From: Escherichia phage ELT1 | DNA: 64,000 bases | Sequence record: MZ892903.1 | Strand: one strand, 5' to 3' | The notes under the pieces: generated by a model | The model's database searches: none | The model's input: the letters and a program-made list of their open reading frames with translations, nothing else | Told to the model about the DNA's origin: nothing | Position numbers and translations under genes: made by a program | Shown: positions 8,148 to 64,000 of the stretch, piece after piece | How positions within the stretch are numbered: the first letter of the stretch is position 1 | How the letters are laid out: every line of letters starts with the position of its first letter

Positions 8148-10127
8148 ATGACTTTATTATCTCCGGGCATTGAGCTCAAAGAAACTACGGTTCAAAGCAC
8201 CGTGGTTAATAACTCTACTGGTACAGCAGCTTTGGCCGGTAAATTCCAGTGGGGTCCTGCTTTTCAGATTAAACAGGTTACAAACGAAGTAGATTTAGTT
8301 AATACTTTTGGTCAACCTACAGCTGAAACTGCTGACTATTTTATGTCTGCAATGAATTTCTTACAATATGGAAATGATTTGCGAGTTGTGCGCGCTGTCG
8401 ATAGAGATACCGCTAAAAACTCATCTCCGATTGCTGGTAATATTGAATACACAATTTCTACCCCAGGTAGTAACTACGCGGTTGGAGATAAAATCACGGT
8501 CAAATATGTTTCAGAAGATGTTGAAACAGAAGGTAAAATTACCGAAGTAGATGCTGATGGAAAAATTAAGAAAATTAATATTCCTACTGCAAAAATTATT
8601 GCTAAAGCTAAAGAAGTTGGCGAATACCCAACATTAGGTTCTAACTGGACTGCAGAAATTTCTTCATCTTCTTCCGGTTTAGCTGCAGTAATAACTCTTG
8701 GAAAAATTATTACTGATTCCGGTATTTTATTAGCTGAAATCGAGAGCGCTGAAACTGCTATGACAGCAGTTGATTTTCAGGCAAATCTTGAAAAATATGG
8801 AATTCCAGGAGTAGTAGCTCTCTATCCAGGCGAATTAGGCGATAAAATTGAAATTGAAATCGTATCTAAAGCTGACTATGCGAAAGGCGCTTCTGCATTA
8901 CTGCCAATTTATCCAGGTGGTGGTACTCGTGCATCTACTGCCAAGGCAGTATTTGGATATGGGCCGCAGACTGACTCACAGTACGCTATTATAGTTCGTC
9001 GAAATGATGCTATTGTTCAAAGCGTTGTTCTTTCAACTAAGCGTGGTGAAAAAGATATTTACGATAGTAACATCTATATCGATGACTTTTTCGCAAAAGG
9101 TGGTTCAGAATATATTTTTGCAACTGCACAAAACTGGCCAGAAGGATTCTCTGGAATTTTAACTCTTTCTGGTGGATTATCATCAAATGCTGAAGTATCA
9201 GCAGGAGATTTGATGGAAGCTTGGGACTTCTTTGCTGACCGTGAATCCGTTGATGTTCAACTGTTTATTGCGGGTTCTTGTGCCGGTGAATCTTTAGAAA
9301 CAGCATCTACTGTCCAAAAACACGTCGTTTCAATTGGAGATGCTCGCCAAGATTGCTTAGTATTGTGCTCACCACCGCGTGAAACTGTTGTTGGAATTCC
9401 TGTAACTCGTGCAGTAGATAATTTAGTTAACTGGAGAACTGCGGCAGGTTCATATACTGATAATAACTTTAATATTAGTTCAACCTACGCAGCAATTGAT
9501 GGTAACTACAAATATCAGTATGACAAATATAATGATGTAAATCGTTGGGTTCCATTAGCAGCTGACATTGCTGGTTTATGCGCGAGAACTGATAACGTTT
9601 CTCAGACTTGGATGTCTCCAGCTGGTTATAATCGTGGTCAGATTCTTAACGTTATTAAACTTGCTATTGAAACTCGCCAGGCGCAGCGCGACCGTTTATA
9701 TCAAGAAGCTATCAACCCAGTAACTGGTACAGGTGGTGATGGTTATGTATTGTATGGTGATAAAACAGCTACTTCTGTTCCTTCTCCATTTGATCGTATT
9801 AACGTTCGTCGTCTGTTTAATATGTTGAAAACGAATATCGGACGTAGTTCAAAATATCGTTTGTTCGAATTAAACAACACGTTTACTCGTTCATCATTCC
9901 GCACAGAAACTTCCCAGTACTTGCAGGGAATTAAAGCTCTCGGTGGAATTTATGAATATCGTGTAGTTTGCGATACAACAAATAACACTCCATCAGTAAT
10001 TGATAGAAATGAGTTTGTTGCAACATTCTACATTCAACCGGCGCGCAGTATAAATTATATTACTTTGAATTTCGTCGCAACTGCTACTGGTGCAGACTTC
10101 GATGAGTTAACTGGTCTTGCAGGTTAA
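8148..10127 (+). CDS. 18: contractile tail sheath protein gp18
   Basis: 659 aa, T4 gp18 length and position. Confidence 0.95.
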   Translation: MTLLSPGIELKETTVQSTVVNNSTGTAALAGKFQWGPAFQIKQVTNEVDLVNTFGQPTAETADYFMSAMNFLQYGNDLRVVRAVDRDTAKNSSPIAGNIEYTISTPGSNYAVGDKITVKYVSEDVETEGKITEVDADGKIKKINIPTAKIIAKAKEVGEYPTLGSNWTAEISSSSSGLAAVITLGKIITDSGILLAEIESAETAMTAVDFQANLEKYGIPGVVALYPGELGDKIEIEIVSKADYAKGASALLPIYPGGGTRASTAKAVFGYGPQTDSQYAIIVRRNDAIVQSVVLSTKRGEKDIYDSNIYIDDFFAKGGSEYIFATAQNWPEGFSGILTLSGGLSSNAEVSAGDLMEAWDFFADRESVDVQLFIAGSCAGESLETASTVQKHVVSIGDARQDCLVLCSPPRETVVGIPVTRAVDNLVNWRTAAGSYTDNNFNISSTYAAIDGNYKYQYDKYNDVNRWVPLAADIAGLCARTDNVSQTWMSPAGYNRGQILNVIKLAIETRQAQRDRLYQEAINPVTGTGGDGYVLYGDKTATSVPSPFDRINVRRLFNMLKTNIGRSSKYRLFELNNTFTRSSFRTETSQYLQGIKALGGIYEYRVVCDTTNNTPSVIDRNEFVATFYIQPARSINYITLNFVATATGADFDELTGLAG

Positions 10128-32599: not shown

Positions 32600-32653
32600 T
32601 CCTCATGTTATGTCAGTAAGTCTACTATAACACAACACGAGGGACTTGTAAAC
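32600..32653 (-). repeat. 54-bp perfect direct repeat, copy A (early promoter + leader + SD cassette)
   Basis: Identical to 46418-46471; on minus strand reads GTTTAC-18 bp-TATAGT ... GAGGA. Confidence 0.9.
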
Positions 32654-39047: not shown

Positions 39048-39086
39048 AGTATTTTCCTCAATAGGGGCCGAAGACCCTGTTTTATT

Positions 39087-39477: not shown

Positions 39478-39517
39478 CGGTACAGGTATATAATATCATA
39501 TCCTGTACCAAAGTAAA
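39478..39517 (-). promoter_or_regulatory. predicted sigma70-type early promoter with -10 element inside an 8-bp inverted repeat
   Basis: minus strand GTTTAC-17 bp-TGaTATTAT; arms ggtacagg (39478-39485) and cctgtacc (39501-39508). Confidence 0.55.
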
Positions 39518-39520
39518 CAA

Positions 39521-39853: not shown

Positions 39854-39880
39854 TTTATTCTCCTTTGTTTGTGTAAGATA

Positions 39881-39910
39881 ATACTATCACAAAGGAACCA
39901 TACTGTAAAC
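39881..39910 (-). promoter_or_regulatory. predicted early promoter
   Basis: minus strand GTTTAC-18 bp-TAGTAT with TGa extension. Confidence 0.45.
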
Positions 39911-39940
39911 AACTTTGTGCAATCTTTGGAAAATAAAAAA

Positions 39941-39958
39941 GGACTCCCGAAGGAGTCC
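39941..39958 (-). terminator. rho-independent terminator (minus strand) after the basic small ORF
   Basis: ggactcc-cgaa-ggagtcc; T-run follows on minus strand. Confidence 0.65.
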
Positions 39959-39963
39959 TCAAC

Positions 39964-42678: not shown

Positions 42679-42911
42679 AGTACGCCATACACCCTTTGTG
42701 CTTCAACTAATCCATCAAAATCCAGTTTAAGATGCGATATTTGATCGCCATCACCTGGATTCACAATTACTAATACTGAACGAGGAGTTTCGGTAATAAC
42801 ACGAACCGATGTTTCAGGAAATCGTTCAGAAACCTTATTTACCAATTCCTGAGCAAATAGTTTAACTTTTTCTTGGAATTCTTTAACAGTAATTGGTTTT
42901 TCGCTTAGCAT
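42675..42911 (-). CDS. hypothetical protein
   Basis: 78-aa ORF. Confidence 0.55.
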   Translation of the reverse strand: MLSEKPITVKEFQEKVKLFAQELVNKVSERFPETSVRVITETPRSVLVIVNPGDGDQISHLKLDFDGLVEAQRVYGVL

Positions 42912-43432
42912 GTTGATCCCAGCTCCATACTTTCAACGTTTTTAACTAATTTGACAGAAACTAATTCGGCATCTTGAGTAATCATTACCGGACCTTCTTC
43001 ATACTCTTCAAGATATTCTAGAGCTTTCTTTTTAGCTTCTTCCTTCGTATCAGTTTGAGCATAGATATAGAACATACAACCAGTAATACCTACTACTTTC
43101 CATTTAATTTCTTTATCAGCTTTAATTTCAAATTTACTGACAGAATCATCTTTTTGAACTTCTTCGAAAAAAGAATATTCTAACATATAAGCAATTGAAA
43201 ATAACGGGCTATCTTTATAGGATTCGCCCATTACATCAATAGCTTTATACCAGCAGTCATCAATTTTGCGTTTAATGCTAATAACATTCTTTGCAGGGTC
43301 AATTTTTACTTTAAATGAATTTTCCCCAATAAACTGGGAAATTCGTTTATTAGCCCCGCAAGTTTCATTAAAAATATCTTTATATCCAGTTTTAAAGCGA
43401 TAAACCTTATCTTCTTCAAACCATTCGCTCAT
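42905..43432 (-). CDS. hypothetical protein
   Basis: 175-aa ORF downstream of predicted early promoter. Confidence 0.6.
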   Translation of the reverse strand: MSEWFEEDKVYRFKTGYKDIFNETCGANKRISQFIGENSFKVKIDPAKNVISIKRKIDDCWYKAIDVMGESYKDSPLFSIAYMLEYSFFEEVQKDDSVSKFEIKADKEIKWKVVGITGCMFYIYAQTDTKEEAKKKALEYLEEYEEGPVMITQDAELVSVKLVKNVESMELGSTC

Positions 43433-43453
43433 TTCAATTTCCTCATTTGTTTT

Positions 43454-43492
43454 GGTAGAGCTATAATATCACAACTCTACCATAAAGTAAAC
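43454..43492 (-). promoter_or_regulatory. predicted early promoter with -10 element inside a 7-bp inverted repeat
   Basis: minus strand GTTTAC-18 bp-TATTAT with TGa extension; arms ggtagag / ctctacc. Confidence 0.5.
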
Positions 43493-46417: not shown

Positions 46418-46471
46418 TCCTCATGTTATGTCAGTAAGTCTACTATAACACAACACGAGGGACTTGTAAAC
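46418..46471 (-). repeat. 54-bp perfect direct repeat, copy B (early promoter + leader + SD cassette upstream of alc)
   Basis: Identical to 32600-32653. Confidence 0.9.
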
Positions 46472-57036: not shown

Positions 57037-57058
57037 TTTATTCTCCTCAGTAGTTGAT

Positions 57059-57094
57059 AGGGTAATAGTATCACACTACTACCCTGCTGTAAAC
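57059..57094 (-). promoter_or_regulatory. predicted early promoter with -10 element inside a 6-bp inverted repeat
   Basis: minus strand GTTTAC-18 bp-TACTAT with TGa extension; arms agggta / taccct. Confidence 0.5.
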
Positions 57095-57096
57095 AA

Positions 57097-57390
57097 TTAT
57101 TTTTGAATTTTATCGAGCCACTTACCAAGCTTAATCATTTCTTTAGTAGCCTTTTCCATACTTCTGAACTTAACCAATAGAGGATAGGTATCGACACCCA
57201 TAACTAAACTGGTTACAAGACTGTGTTCACCCACAAGCCATAACGAATACGTTTGAATATCGAGTCCGTAATTTCTGTCTTTATGGACCCGTACACCCAT
57301 CACTTCAAATTTCTCACTAGCTTTTTCTACCGCATCCAGGAAATCATCTTTAGTCATATTAGGCCTTAAAAGTTTTTCGCAAAAGTTCAA
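57097..57390 (-). CDS. hypothetical protein (frd.3-like)
   Basis: 97-aa ORF. Confidence 0.55.
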   Translation of the reverse strand: MNFCEKLLRPNMTKDDFLDAVEKASEKFEVMGVRVHKDRNYGLDIQTYSLWLVGEHSLVTSLVMGVDTYPLLVKFRSMEKATKEMIKLGKWLDKIQK

Positions 57391-61352: not shown

Positions 61353-61390
61353 AGATTTCTATTATATACTATCCAAATCTTAAAGTAAAC
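61353..61390 (-). promoter_or_regulatory. predicted early promoter for rnh, -10 inside a 6-bp inverted repeat
   Basis: minus strand GTTTAC-18 bp-TATAAT; arms agattt / aaatct. Confidence 0.6.
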
Positions 61391-61435: not shown

Positions 61436-64000
61436 ATGGCCGAGATTAAAAGAAAGTTCAGAGCAGAAGATGGTCTGGACGCAGGTGGCGATAAAATAAT
61501 CAACGTAGCTTTAGCTGATCGTGCCGTAGGAACTGACGGTGTTAACGTTGATTACCTAATTCAAGAAAACACAGTTCAACAATATGATCCAACTCGTGGA
61601 TATTTAAAAGATTTTGTAATCATTTATGATAACCGCTTTTGGGCTGCTATAAATGATATTCCAAAACCGGCAGGAGCTTTTAATAGCGTGCGCTGGAGAG
61701 CATTACGTACTGATGCAAACTGGACAACTGTTTCGTCAGGACCTTATCAATTAAAGTCAGGTGAATCAATTTCAGTTAATACTGCAGCAGGAAATGATAT
61801 CACATTTACTTTGCCAACTTCTCCAATTGATGGAGATACTATCGTTCTTCAAGATATTGGTGGAAAACCTGGAGTTAACCAAGTTTTAATTGTAGCTCCA
61901 GTGCAAAGTATTGTAAACTTTAGAGGCGAACAAGTACGATCAGTACTAATGACCCATCCAAAATCACAGATAGTTTTAATTTTTAGTAATCGTCTGTGGC
62001 AAATGTATGTGGCTGATTATAGCAGAGAAGCGGTAGTTGTGACGCCAGCAAGTCTCTACCAGGCGCAGTCAAACGATTTTATCGTACGCAGATTTACTTC
62101 TGCTGCACCGATAAATATTAAACTTCCGAGATTTGCTAATCATGGCGATATTATTAATTTCGTTGATTTAGATAAATTAAATCCTCTTTATCATACAATT
62201 GTTACTACATATGATGAAACTACATCAGTACAAGAAGATGGAACTCATTCCATTGAAGGCCGTACATCTATTGATGGTTTCTTGATGTATGATGATAATG
62301 AGAAATTATGGAGATTATTTGACGGGGATAGTAAAGCACGTTTACGCGTTATAACAACTAATTCTAATATTCGTCCAAACGAAGAAGTTATGGTATTTGG
62401 TGCGAATAATGGAACAACTCAAACAATTGAACTTCAGCTTCCGACCGATATTTCCATTGGCGATACTGTTAAAATTTCCATGAATTACATGAGAAAAGGC
62501 CAAACAGTTAAAATCAAAGCTGCCGGTGAAGATAAAATTGCTTCTTCAGTTCAATTGCTGCAATTCCCAAAACGTTCAGAATATCCACCTGAAGCTGAAT
62601 GGGTGACTGTTCAAGAATTAGTTTTTAACGGTGAAACTAATTATGTTCCAGTTTTACAACTTGCTTATATCGAAGATTCTGACGGAAAATACTGGGTTGT
62701 ACAGCAAAACGTTCCAACAGTTGAAAGAGTCGATTCTTTAAATAATTCTACTAGAGCAAGATTAGGCGTAATTGCTTTAGCTACACAAGCTCAAGCTAAC
62801 GTCGATTTAGAAAATTCTCCACAAAAAGAATTGGCAATTACTCCAGAAACGTTAGCTAACCGTACTGCTACAGAAACTCGTAGAGGTATTGCAAGAATAG
62901 CAACCACTGCTCAAGTGAACCAGGACACTACATTCTCTTTTGCTGATGATATTATCATCACTCCTAAAAAGCTGAATGAAAGAACTGCTACAGAAACTCG
63001 TAGAGGTGTTGCTGAAATTGCTACACAGCAAGAAACTAACGCAGGTACTGATGATGCTACAATCATCACTCCTAAAAAGCTTCAAGCTCGTCAAGGTTCT
63101 GAATCATTATCTGGTATTGTAACCTTTGTATCTACCGCAGGAGCTACTCCAGCTTCTAGTCGTGAATTAAATGGTACGAATGTTTATAATAAAAACACTG
63201 ATAATTTAGTTGTTTCACCTAAAGCTTTGGATCAGTATAAAGCTACTCCAACACAACAAGGTGCGGTAATTTTAGCAGTTGAAAGTGAAGTAATTGCTGG
63301 ACAGAGCCAAGAAGGATGGGCAAATGCGGTTGTAACGCCAGAAACGTTACATAAAAAGACATCAACTGATGCAAGAATTGGTTTAATTGAAATTGCTACG
63401 CAAAGTGAAGTTAATACAGGAACTGATTATACCCGTGCAGTCACTCCTAAAACTTTAAATGACCGTAAAGCAACTGAAAGTTTAAGTGGTATAGCTGAAA
63501 TTGCTACGCAAGTTGAATTCGACGCAGGCGTCGACGATACTCGTATCTCTACACCATTAAAAATTAAAACCAGATTTAACAGTACTGATCGTACTTCTGT
63601 TGTTGCTCTATCTGGATTAGTTGAATCAGGAACTCTCTGGGACCATTATACCCTTAATATTCTTGAAGCAAATGAGACACAACGTGGTACACTTCGTGTA
63701 GCTACGCAAGTTGAAGCTGCTGCAGGAACATTAGATAATGTTCTAATAACTCCTAAAAAGCTTTTAGGTACTAAATCTACTGAAGCGCAGGAAGGCGTTA
63801 TTAAAGTTGCAACTCAGTCTGAAACTGTAACTGGAACGTCAGCAAATACTGCTGTATCTCCAAAAAATTTAAAATGGATTGTGCAGAGTGAACCTACCTG
63901 GGCAGCTACTACTGCAATAAGAGGTTTTGTTAAAACTTCATCTGGTTCAATTACATTCGTTGGTAATGATACAGTCGGTTCTACCCAAGATTTAGAACTG
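61436..64000 (+). CDS. 34: long tail fiber proximal subunit gp34 (5' partial, runs off window end)
   Basis: Open frame from ATG 61436 (AGGAG SD) with no stop to window end; begins MAEIKRKFRAEDGLDAGGDKIINVALADRAVGTDGVNVDY; internal repeated ...TATETRRG... motifs. Confidence 0.9.
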   Translation, partial: MAEIKRKFRAEDGLDAGGDKIINVALADRAVGTDGVNVDYLIQENTVQQYDPTRGYLKDFVIIYDNRFWAAINDIPKPAGAFNSVRWRALRTDANWTTVSSGPYQLKSGESISVNTAAGNDITFTLPTSPIDGDTIVLQDIGGKPGVNQVLIVAPVQSIVNFRGEQVRSVLMTHPKSQIVLIFSNRLWQMYVADYSREAVVVTPASLYQAQSNDFIVRRFTSAAPINIKLPRFANHGDIINFVDLDKLNPLYHTIVTTYDETTSVQEDGTHSIEGRTSIDGFLMYDDNEKLWRLFDGDSKARLRVITTNSNIRPNEEVMVFGANNGTTQTIELQLPTDISIGDTVKISMNYMRKGQTVKIKAAGEDKIASSVQLLQFPKRSEYPPEAEWVTVQELVFNGETNYVPVLQLAYIEDSDGKYWVVQQNVPTVERVDSLNNSTRARLGVIALATQAQANVDLENSPQKELAITPETLANRTATETRRGIARIATTAQVNQDTTFSFADDIIITPKKLNERTATETRRGVAEIATQQETNAGTDDATIITPKKLQARQGSESLSGIVTFVSTAGATPASSRELNGTNVYNKNTDNLVVSPKALDQYKATPTQQGAVILAVESEVIAGQSQEGWANAVVTPETLHKKTSTDARIGLIEIATQSEVNTGTDYTRAVTPKTLNDRKATESLSGIAEIATQVEFDAGVDDTRISTPLKIKTRFNSTDRTSVVALSGLVESGTLWDHYTLNILEANETQRGTLRVATQVEAAAGTLDNVLITPKKLLGTKSTEAQEGVIKVATQSETVTGTSANTAVSPKNLKWIVQSEPTWAATTAIRGFVKTSSGSITFVGNDTVGSTQDLEL

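Follow-up and report, generated by a model that had tools for sequence, protein, structure and literature searches.

T4-type phages carry promoter-early stem-loop cassettes, the PeSLs (Arbiol et al. 2010, PMC2839356; Comeau et al. 2014, PMC4122927). In the phages RB49 and phi1, the stem-loops of these cassettes lie most commonly between the two promoter elements, -35 and -10, or overlap the -10 element (PMC2839356). G-T pairs were noted in the stems, and analogues with weaker, AT-rich stems were described for the T-even phages (PMC2839356). A terminator or attenuator function was proposed by the authors, and one of the RB49/phi1 stem-loops cut the expression of lacZ to about the extent seen with the rrnB T1 terminator (PMC2839356). 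The PeSLs were then extended to the pair PST and T4, where the stem-loops were placed just upstream of the promoter and not around the -10 element (PMC4122927). Recombination at the motifs is stressed in both papers (PMC2839356, PMC4122927), and the formation of mini-circles by recombining cassettes is among the features given for the class. A promoter nested in a helix is known from the T4 genes e, soc, 49 and I-TevI, where the ribosome-binding site of the read-through RNA is held in a helix and that of the RNA started at the nested promoter is free (PMC3014915). In general reviews of the T4 early promoters we found no mention of the symmetry, and in the literature on 3'-end and start-site mapping in T4 and on dyad symmetry in T4 early promoters we found nothing beyond the PeSL papers.

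The DNA analysed here, called the window, is a stretch of 64,000 nucleotides from Escherichia phage ELT1 (MZ892903.1). It belongs to the T4-like group Tequatrovirus, and on the T4 map it is equivalent to the part from roughly 90 to 154 kb. With 2 kb taken from around the finding, hundreds of Tequatrovirus genomes (SG1, KRT47, wV7, T4-type) were matched at 97-98% identity. A preliminary description of the window had counted seven early-type promoters and had reported inverted repeats around the -10 element at four of them, named sites 1 to 4 in Table 1. Our pattern scan recognised eight good early promoters (61390, 58092, 57094, 46471, 43492, 39910, 39518 and 32653), and at six of the eight the promoter spacer is the 5' strand of a hairpin. 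All four repeats are present on the minus strand, within a long leftward early gene cluster, and only the span given for site 1 was off by 1 nt. Each of the four sites is intergenic and consists of GTTTAC, a spacer of 17-18 bp and a TG-extended -10 element (TAnnnT), which is the form of a sigma70-type early promoter. The perfect arms on either side of the -10 element are 8, 7, 6 and 6 bp long at sites 1, 2, 3 and 4, respectively, with 14-16 bp between them. As had been described, the arm sequences broadly differ between the promoters, although a GGTA/TACC core is common to three of the four sites.

Table 1. Promoters, hairpin arms, duplicated cassette and terminator in the window
Feature	Position	Strand	Details
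Site 1, early promoter 5' of gene 30.7	39479-39518	-	-35 GTTTAC 39518-39513; -10 TATTAT 39495-39490
Site 1, arms	39509-39502 / 39486-39479	-	5' strand ggtacagg (spacer); 3' strand cctgtacc, spans the inferred start
Site 2, early promoter with cd.3 and a 175-aa ORF on either side	43453-43492	-	-35 43492-43487; -10 TATTAT 43468-43463
Site 2, arms	43481-43475 / 43460-43454	-	ggtagag / ctctacc; 8 bp when extended: tggtagag 43482-43475 / ctctacca 43460-43453
Site 3, early promoter 5' of an 80-aa frd.1-like gene	57059-57094	-	-35 GTTTAC 57094-57089; -10 TACTAT 57070-57065
Site 3, arms	57085-57080 / 57064-57059	-	agggta / taccct; in RNA an unbroken 12-bp helix, -10 hexamer included
Site 4, rnh early promoter	61353-61390	-	-35 GTTTAC 61390-61385; -10 TATAAT 61366-61361
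Site 4, arms	61380-61375 / 61358-61353	-	agattt / aaatct, 6 bp; chance match
Sister promoter 5' of gene 30.8	39861-39910	-	-35 39910-39905; -10 TAGTAT 39886-39881
39910 promoter, long-form hairpin	39896-39889 / 39868-39861	-	spacer tcctttgt / acaaagga (the Shine-Dalgarno sequence); -12.1 kcal/mol
54-nt promoter-to-Shine-Dalgarno cassette, copy 1, 5' of alt.-3	32600-32653	-	identical to 46418-46471
54-nt promoter-to-Shine-Dalgarno cassette, copy 2, 5' of alc	46418-46471	-	identical to 32600-32653
Canonical intrinsic terminator directly 5' of the 39910 promoter	39939-39960	-	GAGGACTCC-TTCG-GGAGTCCTT and T-run

The layout of the cassettes was compared with that of the PeSLs. An AT-rich sequence precedes the -35 element at sites 1-3 (aaaataatt, caatttaatg and aaaaataatt, respectively), and a Shine-Dalgarno sequence with the start codon is found at the 3' end of the cassettes (ggagaataaaaATG, gaggaaattgaaATG and gaggagaataaaATG). 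In the PeSLs, which are intergenic too, the order is the same: AT-rich DNA comes first, then the sigma70-type early promoter, next a stem-loop, and last the Shine-Dalgarno sequence with the start codon. They likewise occur in many copies per genome and are linked to gene indels between close relatives. In contrast, the RB49/phi1 stems are typically of the polyG/polyC type and terminator activity is reported for one of them, whereas the stems found here are rich in AU and GU pairs and lack a U-tract. The best reading of these sequences is that the hairpin-promoters of sites 1-3 belong to the published PeSL class.

One further promoter-like sequence was observed in the window. It is a perfect GTTTAC-N18-TACAAT at 61889-61918 on the minus strand, antisense inside the long tail fibre gene 34, and it is kept in T4 at position 151291. 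Neither a Shine-Dalgarno sequence nor an ORF follows it. An antisense transcript or an origin-related transcript would be examples of a possible role.

The sites were then folded as RNA. The sense RNA of site 1 folds with -16.1 kcal/mol (z -5.74 against dinucleotide shuffles). At site 2, the sense RNA reaches -17.2 kcal/mol (z -5.65) and the antisense RNA -10.0 kcal/mol, and U·G pairs prolong the stem into the -10 element. At site 3, the values are -15.2 kcal/mol (z -3.34) for the sense and -11.6 kcal/mol for the antisense RNA. The folds of sites 1-3 have loops of 3-4 nt and stems of 12-14 bp with a large share of A-U and G·U pairs. Site 4 behaved differently. Its sense RNA folds with only -2.1 kcal/mol (z +0.98), and 172 of 200 shuffled sequences folded equally well; therefore, we judge its inverted repeat to be a chance match that lies outside the phenomenon. 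The four repeats had been taken as one phenomenon, and this holds for sites 1-3 (z -3.3 to -5.7) but not for site 4. No enclosing hairpin was seen at the rnh promoter in four genera, the T4, Dhakavirus and Mosigvirus orthologues among them.

In the T4 record AF158101, a misc_feature at 133300-133313 (window 43461-43474) reads 'inverted complement of previously reported sequence; corrects the early promoter Pe133295'. The feature spans exactly the 14 nt between the site 2 arms GGTAGAG/CTCTACC, so the older T4 sequence had the loop of this hairpin flipped, either through an artefact of sequencing the hairpin or through a real inversion mediated by the repeat.

Such arms might be no commoner at these promoters than in control sequence, a doubt already raised in the preliminary description, and it was answered by a genome-wide scan. 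Since the GenBank and RefSeq records of T4 have no promoter features, the T4 promoters were defined by the pattern GTTTAC-N17/18-TAnnnT, which gave 41 promoters in three pieces that cover about 144 of the 169 kb. The stem scored for each promoter was the longest perfect one whose 5' arm lay in the spacer of 18 nt and whose 3' arm lay no more than 22 nt after the -10 element. As a control, each spacer was joined to the downstream flank of another promoter. This chimera keeps the position-specific composition and the consensus. Arms of at least 6 bp that bracket the -10 element were found at 18 of the 41 T4 promoters, whereas 3.3 were expected. With at least 7 bp there were 12 promoters (0.55 expected) and with at least 8 bp there were 8 (0.12 expected), counts which are somewhat inflated by paralogous cassettes. 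None of 5000 permutations matched the observed numbers, and mononucleotide shuffles gave the same baseline. The excess over chance is thus strong. When the loop centres of all T4 stems of at least 6 bp were plotted in a frame of 200 nt, they peaked on the -10 hexamer. A second, smaller peak was located about 65 nt upstream, which is the usual location of a terminator. The result was replicated in a Mosigvirus, where 8 of 35 promoters have arms of at least 8 bp (0.44 expected), and in a Karamvirus with 3 of 22 (0.14 expected). In T4, 19 of the 41 promoters exceed the chimeras in stability by 5 kcal/mol or more, and about half of the early promoters have no such hairpin. Sites 1-3 are members of a real, strong and conserved genome-wide pattern of T4-type early promoters, and promoter-bracketing hairpins are ordinary for these phages.

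The preliminary description had placed the symmetry at the level of the DNA and not of an RNA hairpin, on the ground that the transcript of the promoter itself cannot fold. The ground is correct. We infer that transcription starts about 7 nt after the -10 element, which is inside the distal arm, and the own transcript would then be unable to form the hairpin. The conclusion does not follow, however, because read-through transcripts were ignored. The promoters stand in tandem inside long early gene clusters of the same strand, so RNA from upstream promoters is expected to run through them. Between the 39910 promoter and site 1, a terminator scan found no terminator-like site. The rnh promoter is the only member of the set without upstream transcription on the same strand. 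It opens its leftward unit and is divergent from the adjoining gene 34, so no read-through RNA is expected there, and the lack of a hairpin at this promoter fits the read-through model.

The sense and the antisense strands were compared for the 41 T4 promoters. The minimum free energy was -11.5 kcal/mol for the sense and -8.6 kcal/mol for the antisense strand (p=1.3e-4). When the composition effects were subtracted, the excess over the chimeras was -4.8 kcal/mol for the sense and -3.0 kcal/mol for the antisense strand (p=0.005). The antisense strand was also more stable than the chimeric controls, and none of 5000 permutations reached its value. In two other genera, the sense and antisense excess was -3.6 and -2.9 (p=0.12) and -3.6 and -2.8 (p=0.07), each taken alone, and -3.6 and -2.8 kcal/mol when they were pooled (n=57, p=0.019). 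The first replicate subset of 25 promoters gave p=0.22 for the strand asymmetry, which became significant only once the rest of the two genomes was added. The asymmetry is modest (0.7-1.8 kcal/mol), and a strand-biased C to T mutation spectrum could add to it. In addition, the isolated mismatches inside the helices were of the G:T type in 10 cases and of the A:C type in 1 case, and the helices run past the Watson-Crick arms by G·U pairs that are present on the transcribed strand only.

The spacer of many sister promoters pairs instead with the Shine-Dalgarno sequence, which lies 20-30 nt beyond the -10 flank. This long form was observed in the window at the promoters 39910, 32653 and 46471, and in T4 at 8218, 53943, 62797, 65413, 123093, 130310, 136336 and 166807. 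Two of the window promoters belong to identical copies of a 54-nt cassette that extends from GTTTAC to the Shine-Dalgarno sequence and has unrelated flanks. In this cassette, the spacer cctcgtgttgtgt pairs with acataacatgagg, the Shine-Dalgarno sequence included, with -22.0 kcal/mol on the sense and -12.8 kcal/mol on the antisense strand. At the alc promoter, the pairing with the Shine-Dalgarno sequence is kept across three genera through different sequences, tctcctcat/atgaggaga in Dhakavirus and ctccatttg/caaatggag in Karamvirus. A Shine-Dalgarno partner has no meaning at the DNA level, which favours an RNA helix. Taken together, the G·U extension, the sense-strand asymmetry, the bias towards G:T mismatches and the Shine-Dalgarno partner of the sister promoters make a sense-strand RNA hairpin, formed in read-through transcripts, the most likely form of the element as judged from the sequence.

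The accessibility of the Shine-Dalgarno sequence was predicted for T4 promoters of both forms. At T4 130310, the orthologue of 39910, it was 0.91 in the own transcript and 0.38 in the read-through RNA, which agrees with a silencing by the long form. The T4 orthologues of sites 1-3 had values of 0.66-0.73 in the read-through RNA, which is not below the chimeric controls. At the compact sites, the Shine-Dalgarno sequence is if anything slightly more open than in the controls, a trend opposite to hiding. A hiding of the Shine-Dalgarno sequence in read-through RNA was also considered as a rule for all the hairpin promoters and was rejected (native against chimeric read-through RNA, p=0.11).

To follow the arms through related phages, orthologous promoters were collected. 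At site 1, the arms GGTACAGG/CCTGTACC were invariant in 14 related contigs with a protein identity down to 89%, and the loop, the sequence 5' of the -35 element and the leader diverged around the constant arms. In one contig, a C to T change leaves a G·U pair. The stem of site 1 grows to 11-12 bp in Mosigvirus and Dhakavirus, and the Mosigvirus orthologue of site 2 has a 10-bp stem (TGGTAGAGTT/AACTCTACCA). For site 3, 33 leaders were gathered via the downstream protein. The orthologous promoters carry different arms at the same position, which are AGGGTA/TACCCT, CAGGGTA/TACCCTG, AGGCTAT/ATAGCCT, AGGGCTAT/ATAGCCCT, ATAGGGCT/AGCCCTAT, ATGGGGCT/GGTCCCAT and GGTGTAGAGG/CTTCTACACC. This bears out the earlier view that the symmetry itself is conserved and not a sequence motif.

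A formal covariation test was made for site 3 only, since the arm variation was too low at sites 1 and 2, for which there were few IMG/VR orthologues. Eleven distinct sequences in the same register were aligned, and all 126 of 126 cells were paired, which none of 500 shuffles reached. This alignment was registered by hand with N placeholders for an indel of one pair, and it leans towards the structure. Two pairs had compensatory changes, and five pair positions varied solely between Watson-Crick and G·U. All five one-sided changes are compatible with a wobble pair on the sense strand. When the partner was moved by 1-3 columns, the pairing fell to 27-56%.

The terminators of the region look different. 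In the canonical terminator upstream of the 39910 promoter, the T-run doubles as the AT-rich upstream element of the promoter, and this order of terminator and promoter is seen again at six T4 promoters of the 'ttttttcacaaaacNGTTTAC' subfamily. In these pairs, as at sites 1-3, an intergenic hairpin is tightly packed with a promoter among tandem early genes. The canonical terminators, however, are located 5' of the -35 element, with a tetraloop on a GC-rich stem and a T-run that passes into the upstream element. The hairpins of sites 1-3 surround the -10 element, have no U-run (tails gcaattaa, aaaacaaa and atcaacta) and were not called in the terminator scan. Since a U-tract is missing, a classical or strong intrinsic termination is doubtful at these sites. 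A substitution of the embedded hairpins for the upstream canonical terminators was considered and rejected, as the two showed no clear complementarity (r = -0.15).

A terminator-like hairpin with a T-run was also seen on the plus strand at 39060-39081, between the genes 30.7 and 30.6 and antisense to the early genes. It might stop antisense transcription in the late period or act bidirectionally. In distant T4-like contigs of 142-181 kb (loci L045-L052), a GC-rich terminator (CCCCTTGCC...GGTGAGGGG and TTTT) lies about 60-90 nt 5' of the frd.1-like gene. Its loop carries a TTGCCT -35 element that is followed by TATATT, so the stem-loop encloses the -35 and not the -10 element.

The homology to T4 breaks right at the promoter cassettes of sites 2 and 3. 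Compared to T4, the 175-aa ORF (520 bp, 42911-43429), which is also present in a Dhakavirus, is inserted between the site 2 Shine-Dalgarno sequence and cd.2. Between the site 3 promoter and the frd.1-like gene (window 57051-57365), an additional hydrophobic ORF of about 23 aa occurs in T4 and in two IMG/VR contigs. A link of the cassettes with gene shuffling in T4-type genomes can be seen in this window as well.

The compact hairpins could be terminators or attenuators for polymerases that arrive from upstream and would then insulate the unit of each promoter. This has a precedent in the RB49/phi1 stem-loop that reduced lacZ expression similarly to rrnB T1 (PMC2839356). In addition, the loci L045-L052 hold their canonical terminator at the orthologous position with the -35 element in the loop, and the ARNOLD annotation of a Mosigvirus record has a 'terminator' at about the site 3 orthologue. 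Nevertheless, we consider this explanation unlikely, as sites 1-3 combine AU- and GU-rich stems with the lack of a U-run, the real GC-rich and U-tailed terminators nearby look quite different, and embedded hairpins show no anticorrelation with canonical terminators upstream. Even less probable is that the repeats are a functionless by-product, left and kept perfect by template switching (quasi-palindrome mutation) or by promoter cassettes that recombine and become duplicated, in a spacer and start region that are otherwise unconstrained. It is true that the cassettes are duplicated and shuffled, as seen with the identical 54-nt copy and with the indels at the cassette borders. The PeSL papers stress recombination at the motifs, and the older T4 sequence has the site 2 loop inverted. 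But template switching predicts perfect Watson-Crick repeats and no strand asymmetry, whereas a variation by G·U pairs only was observed. Moreover, the arms stay paired across genera though their flanks diverge, and in orthologues the pairing partner switches between the -10 flank and the Shine-Dalgarno sequence, which suggests a selection for pairing.

An action at the level of the DNA, by cruciform extrusion or by a symmetric protein site on the -10 element that would modulate initiation or the shut-off of the early promoters, appears very improbable to us. By definition, both strands contain the Watson-Crick cores, the stability of the antisense strand over the chimeras would agree with such a role, and the mechanism of the early-promoter shut-off is reported to be not fully understood (PMC3014915). 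However, arms of 6-8 bp with spacers of 14-16 bp are far below what cruciform extrusion generally requires, and the DNA hairpins of sites 1-3 have only -6 to -8 kcal/mol per strand, which is too weak, so the cruciform potential proposed earlier is implausible. The arms differ between the promoters and between the orthologues, and this excludes the common symmetric protein site that had been offered as the other option. The G·U extension exists on one strand only, the sense strand is stabilised more than the antisense strand, and the move of the 3' arm to the Shine-Dalgarno sequence in the sister promoters is sensible only for RNA.

The explanation that we prefer, and hold to be probable from the sequence comparisons, is that of early-promoter cassettes of the PeSL type with a hairpin in the read-through RNA of the minus strand. 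The spacer that separates the -35 from the -10 element would encode the 5' strand of the hairpin, and the -10 element with the start region would encode the 3' strand. The hairpin could then form only in transcripts begun at an upstream early promoter. The own transcript would start inside the 3' strand and would lack the 5' strand. Each promoter would thus have two forms of its leader, a structured one in the read-through RNA and an unstructured one in the own RNA. In the long form (39910, 32653 and 46471), the 3' strand would be the Shine-Dalgarno sequence itself, and the read-through RNA would be poorly translated. By analogy, this effect is likely to be the one known from the T4 genes e, soc, 49 and I-TevI, where the Shine-Dalgarno sequence is hidden in the read-through RNA.

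In both systems the promoter lies within the region coding for the helix's 5' strand, the transcript of the nested promoter is without that strand, and the long form shares the pairing with the Shine-Dalgarno sequence. The promoters of e, soc, 49 and I-TevI differ in being late (or middle) promoters with a temporal control, whereas those described here are early sigma70 promoters. A further difference is that the 3' strand of sites 1-3 ends before the Shine-Dalgarno sequence, so that a silencing of translation is not predicted for them. In the compact form of sites 1-3, the Shine-Dalgarno sequence would remain free and the hairpin may punctuate the polycistronic read-through RNA. It might act as a weak attenuator, or it might keep 3' exonucleases from the upstream cistron once the leader has been cleaved. 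It could also cover the AU-rich promoter sequence in the RNA or insulate the ribosome-binding site from pairing with the pyrimidine-rich spacer. We did not find the strand asymmetry, the logic of a hairpin restricted to read-through RNA or the distinction of a compact and a Shine-Dalgarno-pairing form stated in the PeSL papers.

The main gain of the analysis is that the level of testing is corrected from DNA to RNA; the class of the element was already known, and the practical value is modest. A wider proposal is put forward only tentatively and may well prove too broad. It holds that about half of the Tevenvirinae early promoters are deliberately nested in hairpins, which would mark the leaders genome-wide by the origin of the transcript, with a silencing and a punctuating form. 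If this is true, the form that pairs with the Shine-Dalgarno sequence would extend the principle of e, soc, 49 and I-TevI from a few late to many early promoters. The compact form would punctuate or protect the polycistronic RNA with no U-tract involved; examples would be a halt of polymerases that meet an occupied promoter, or a shielding of the AU-rich promoter sequence from RNase E.

Early transcription in T4 is a classic model, and the standard descriptions of its promoters list only the UP element, the -35 element, the TGn and the -10 element. If the spacer and the start region also encode a hairpin that forms in read-through RNA only, a part of the 'extra' conservation of these promoters would be at the level of the RNA, and data on promoter strength from cloned fragments would miss a layer of control. 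Gene shuffling in T4-type phages has been proposed to use PeSL-type cassettes as its joints. If the hairpins act in this way, stability or translation could differ between the structured and the unstructured RNA of each early gene.
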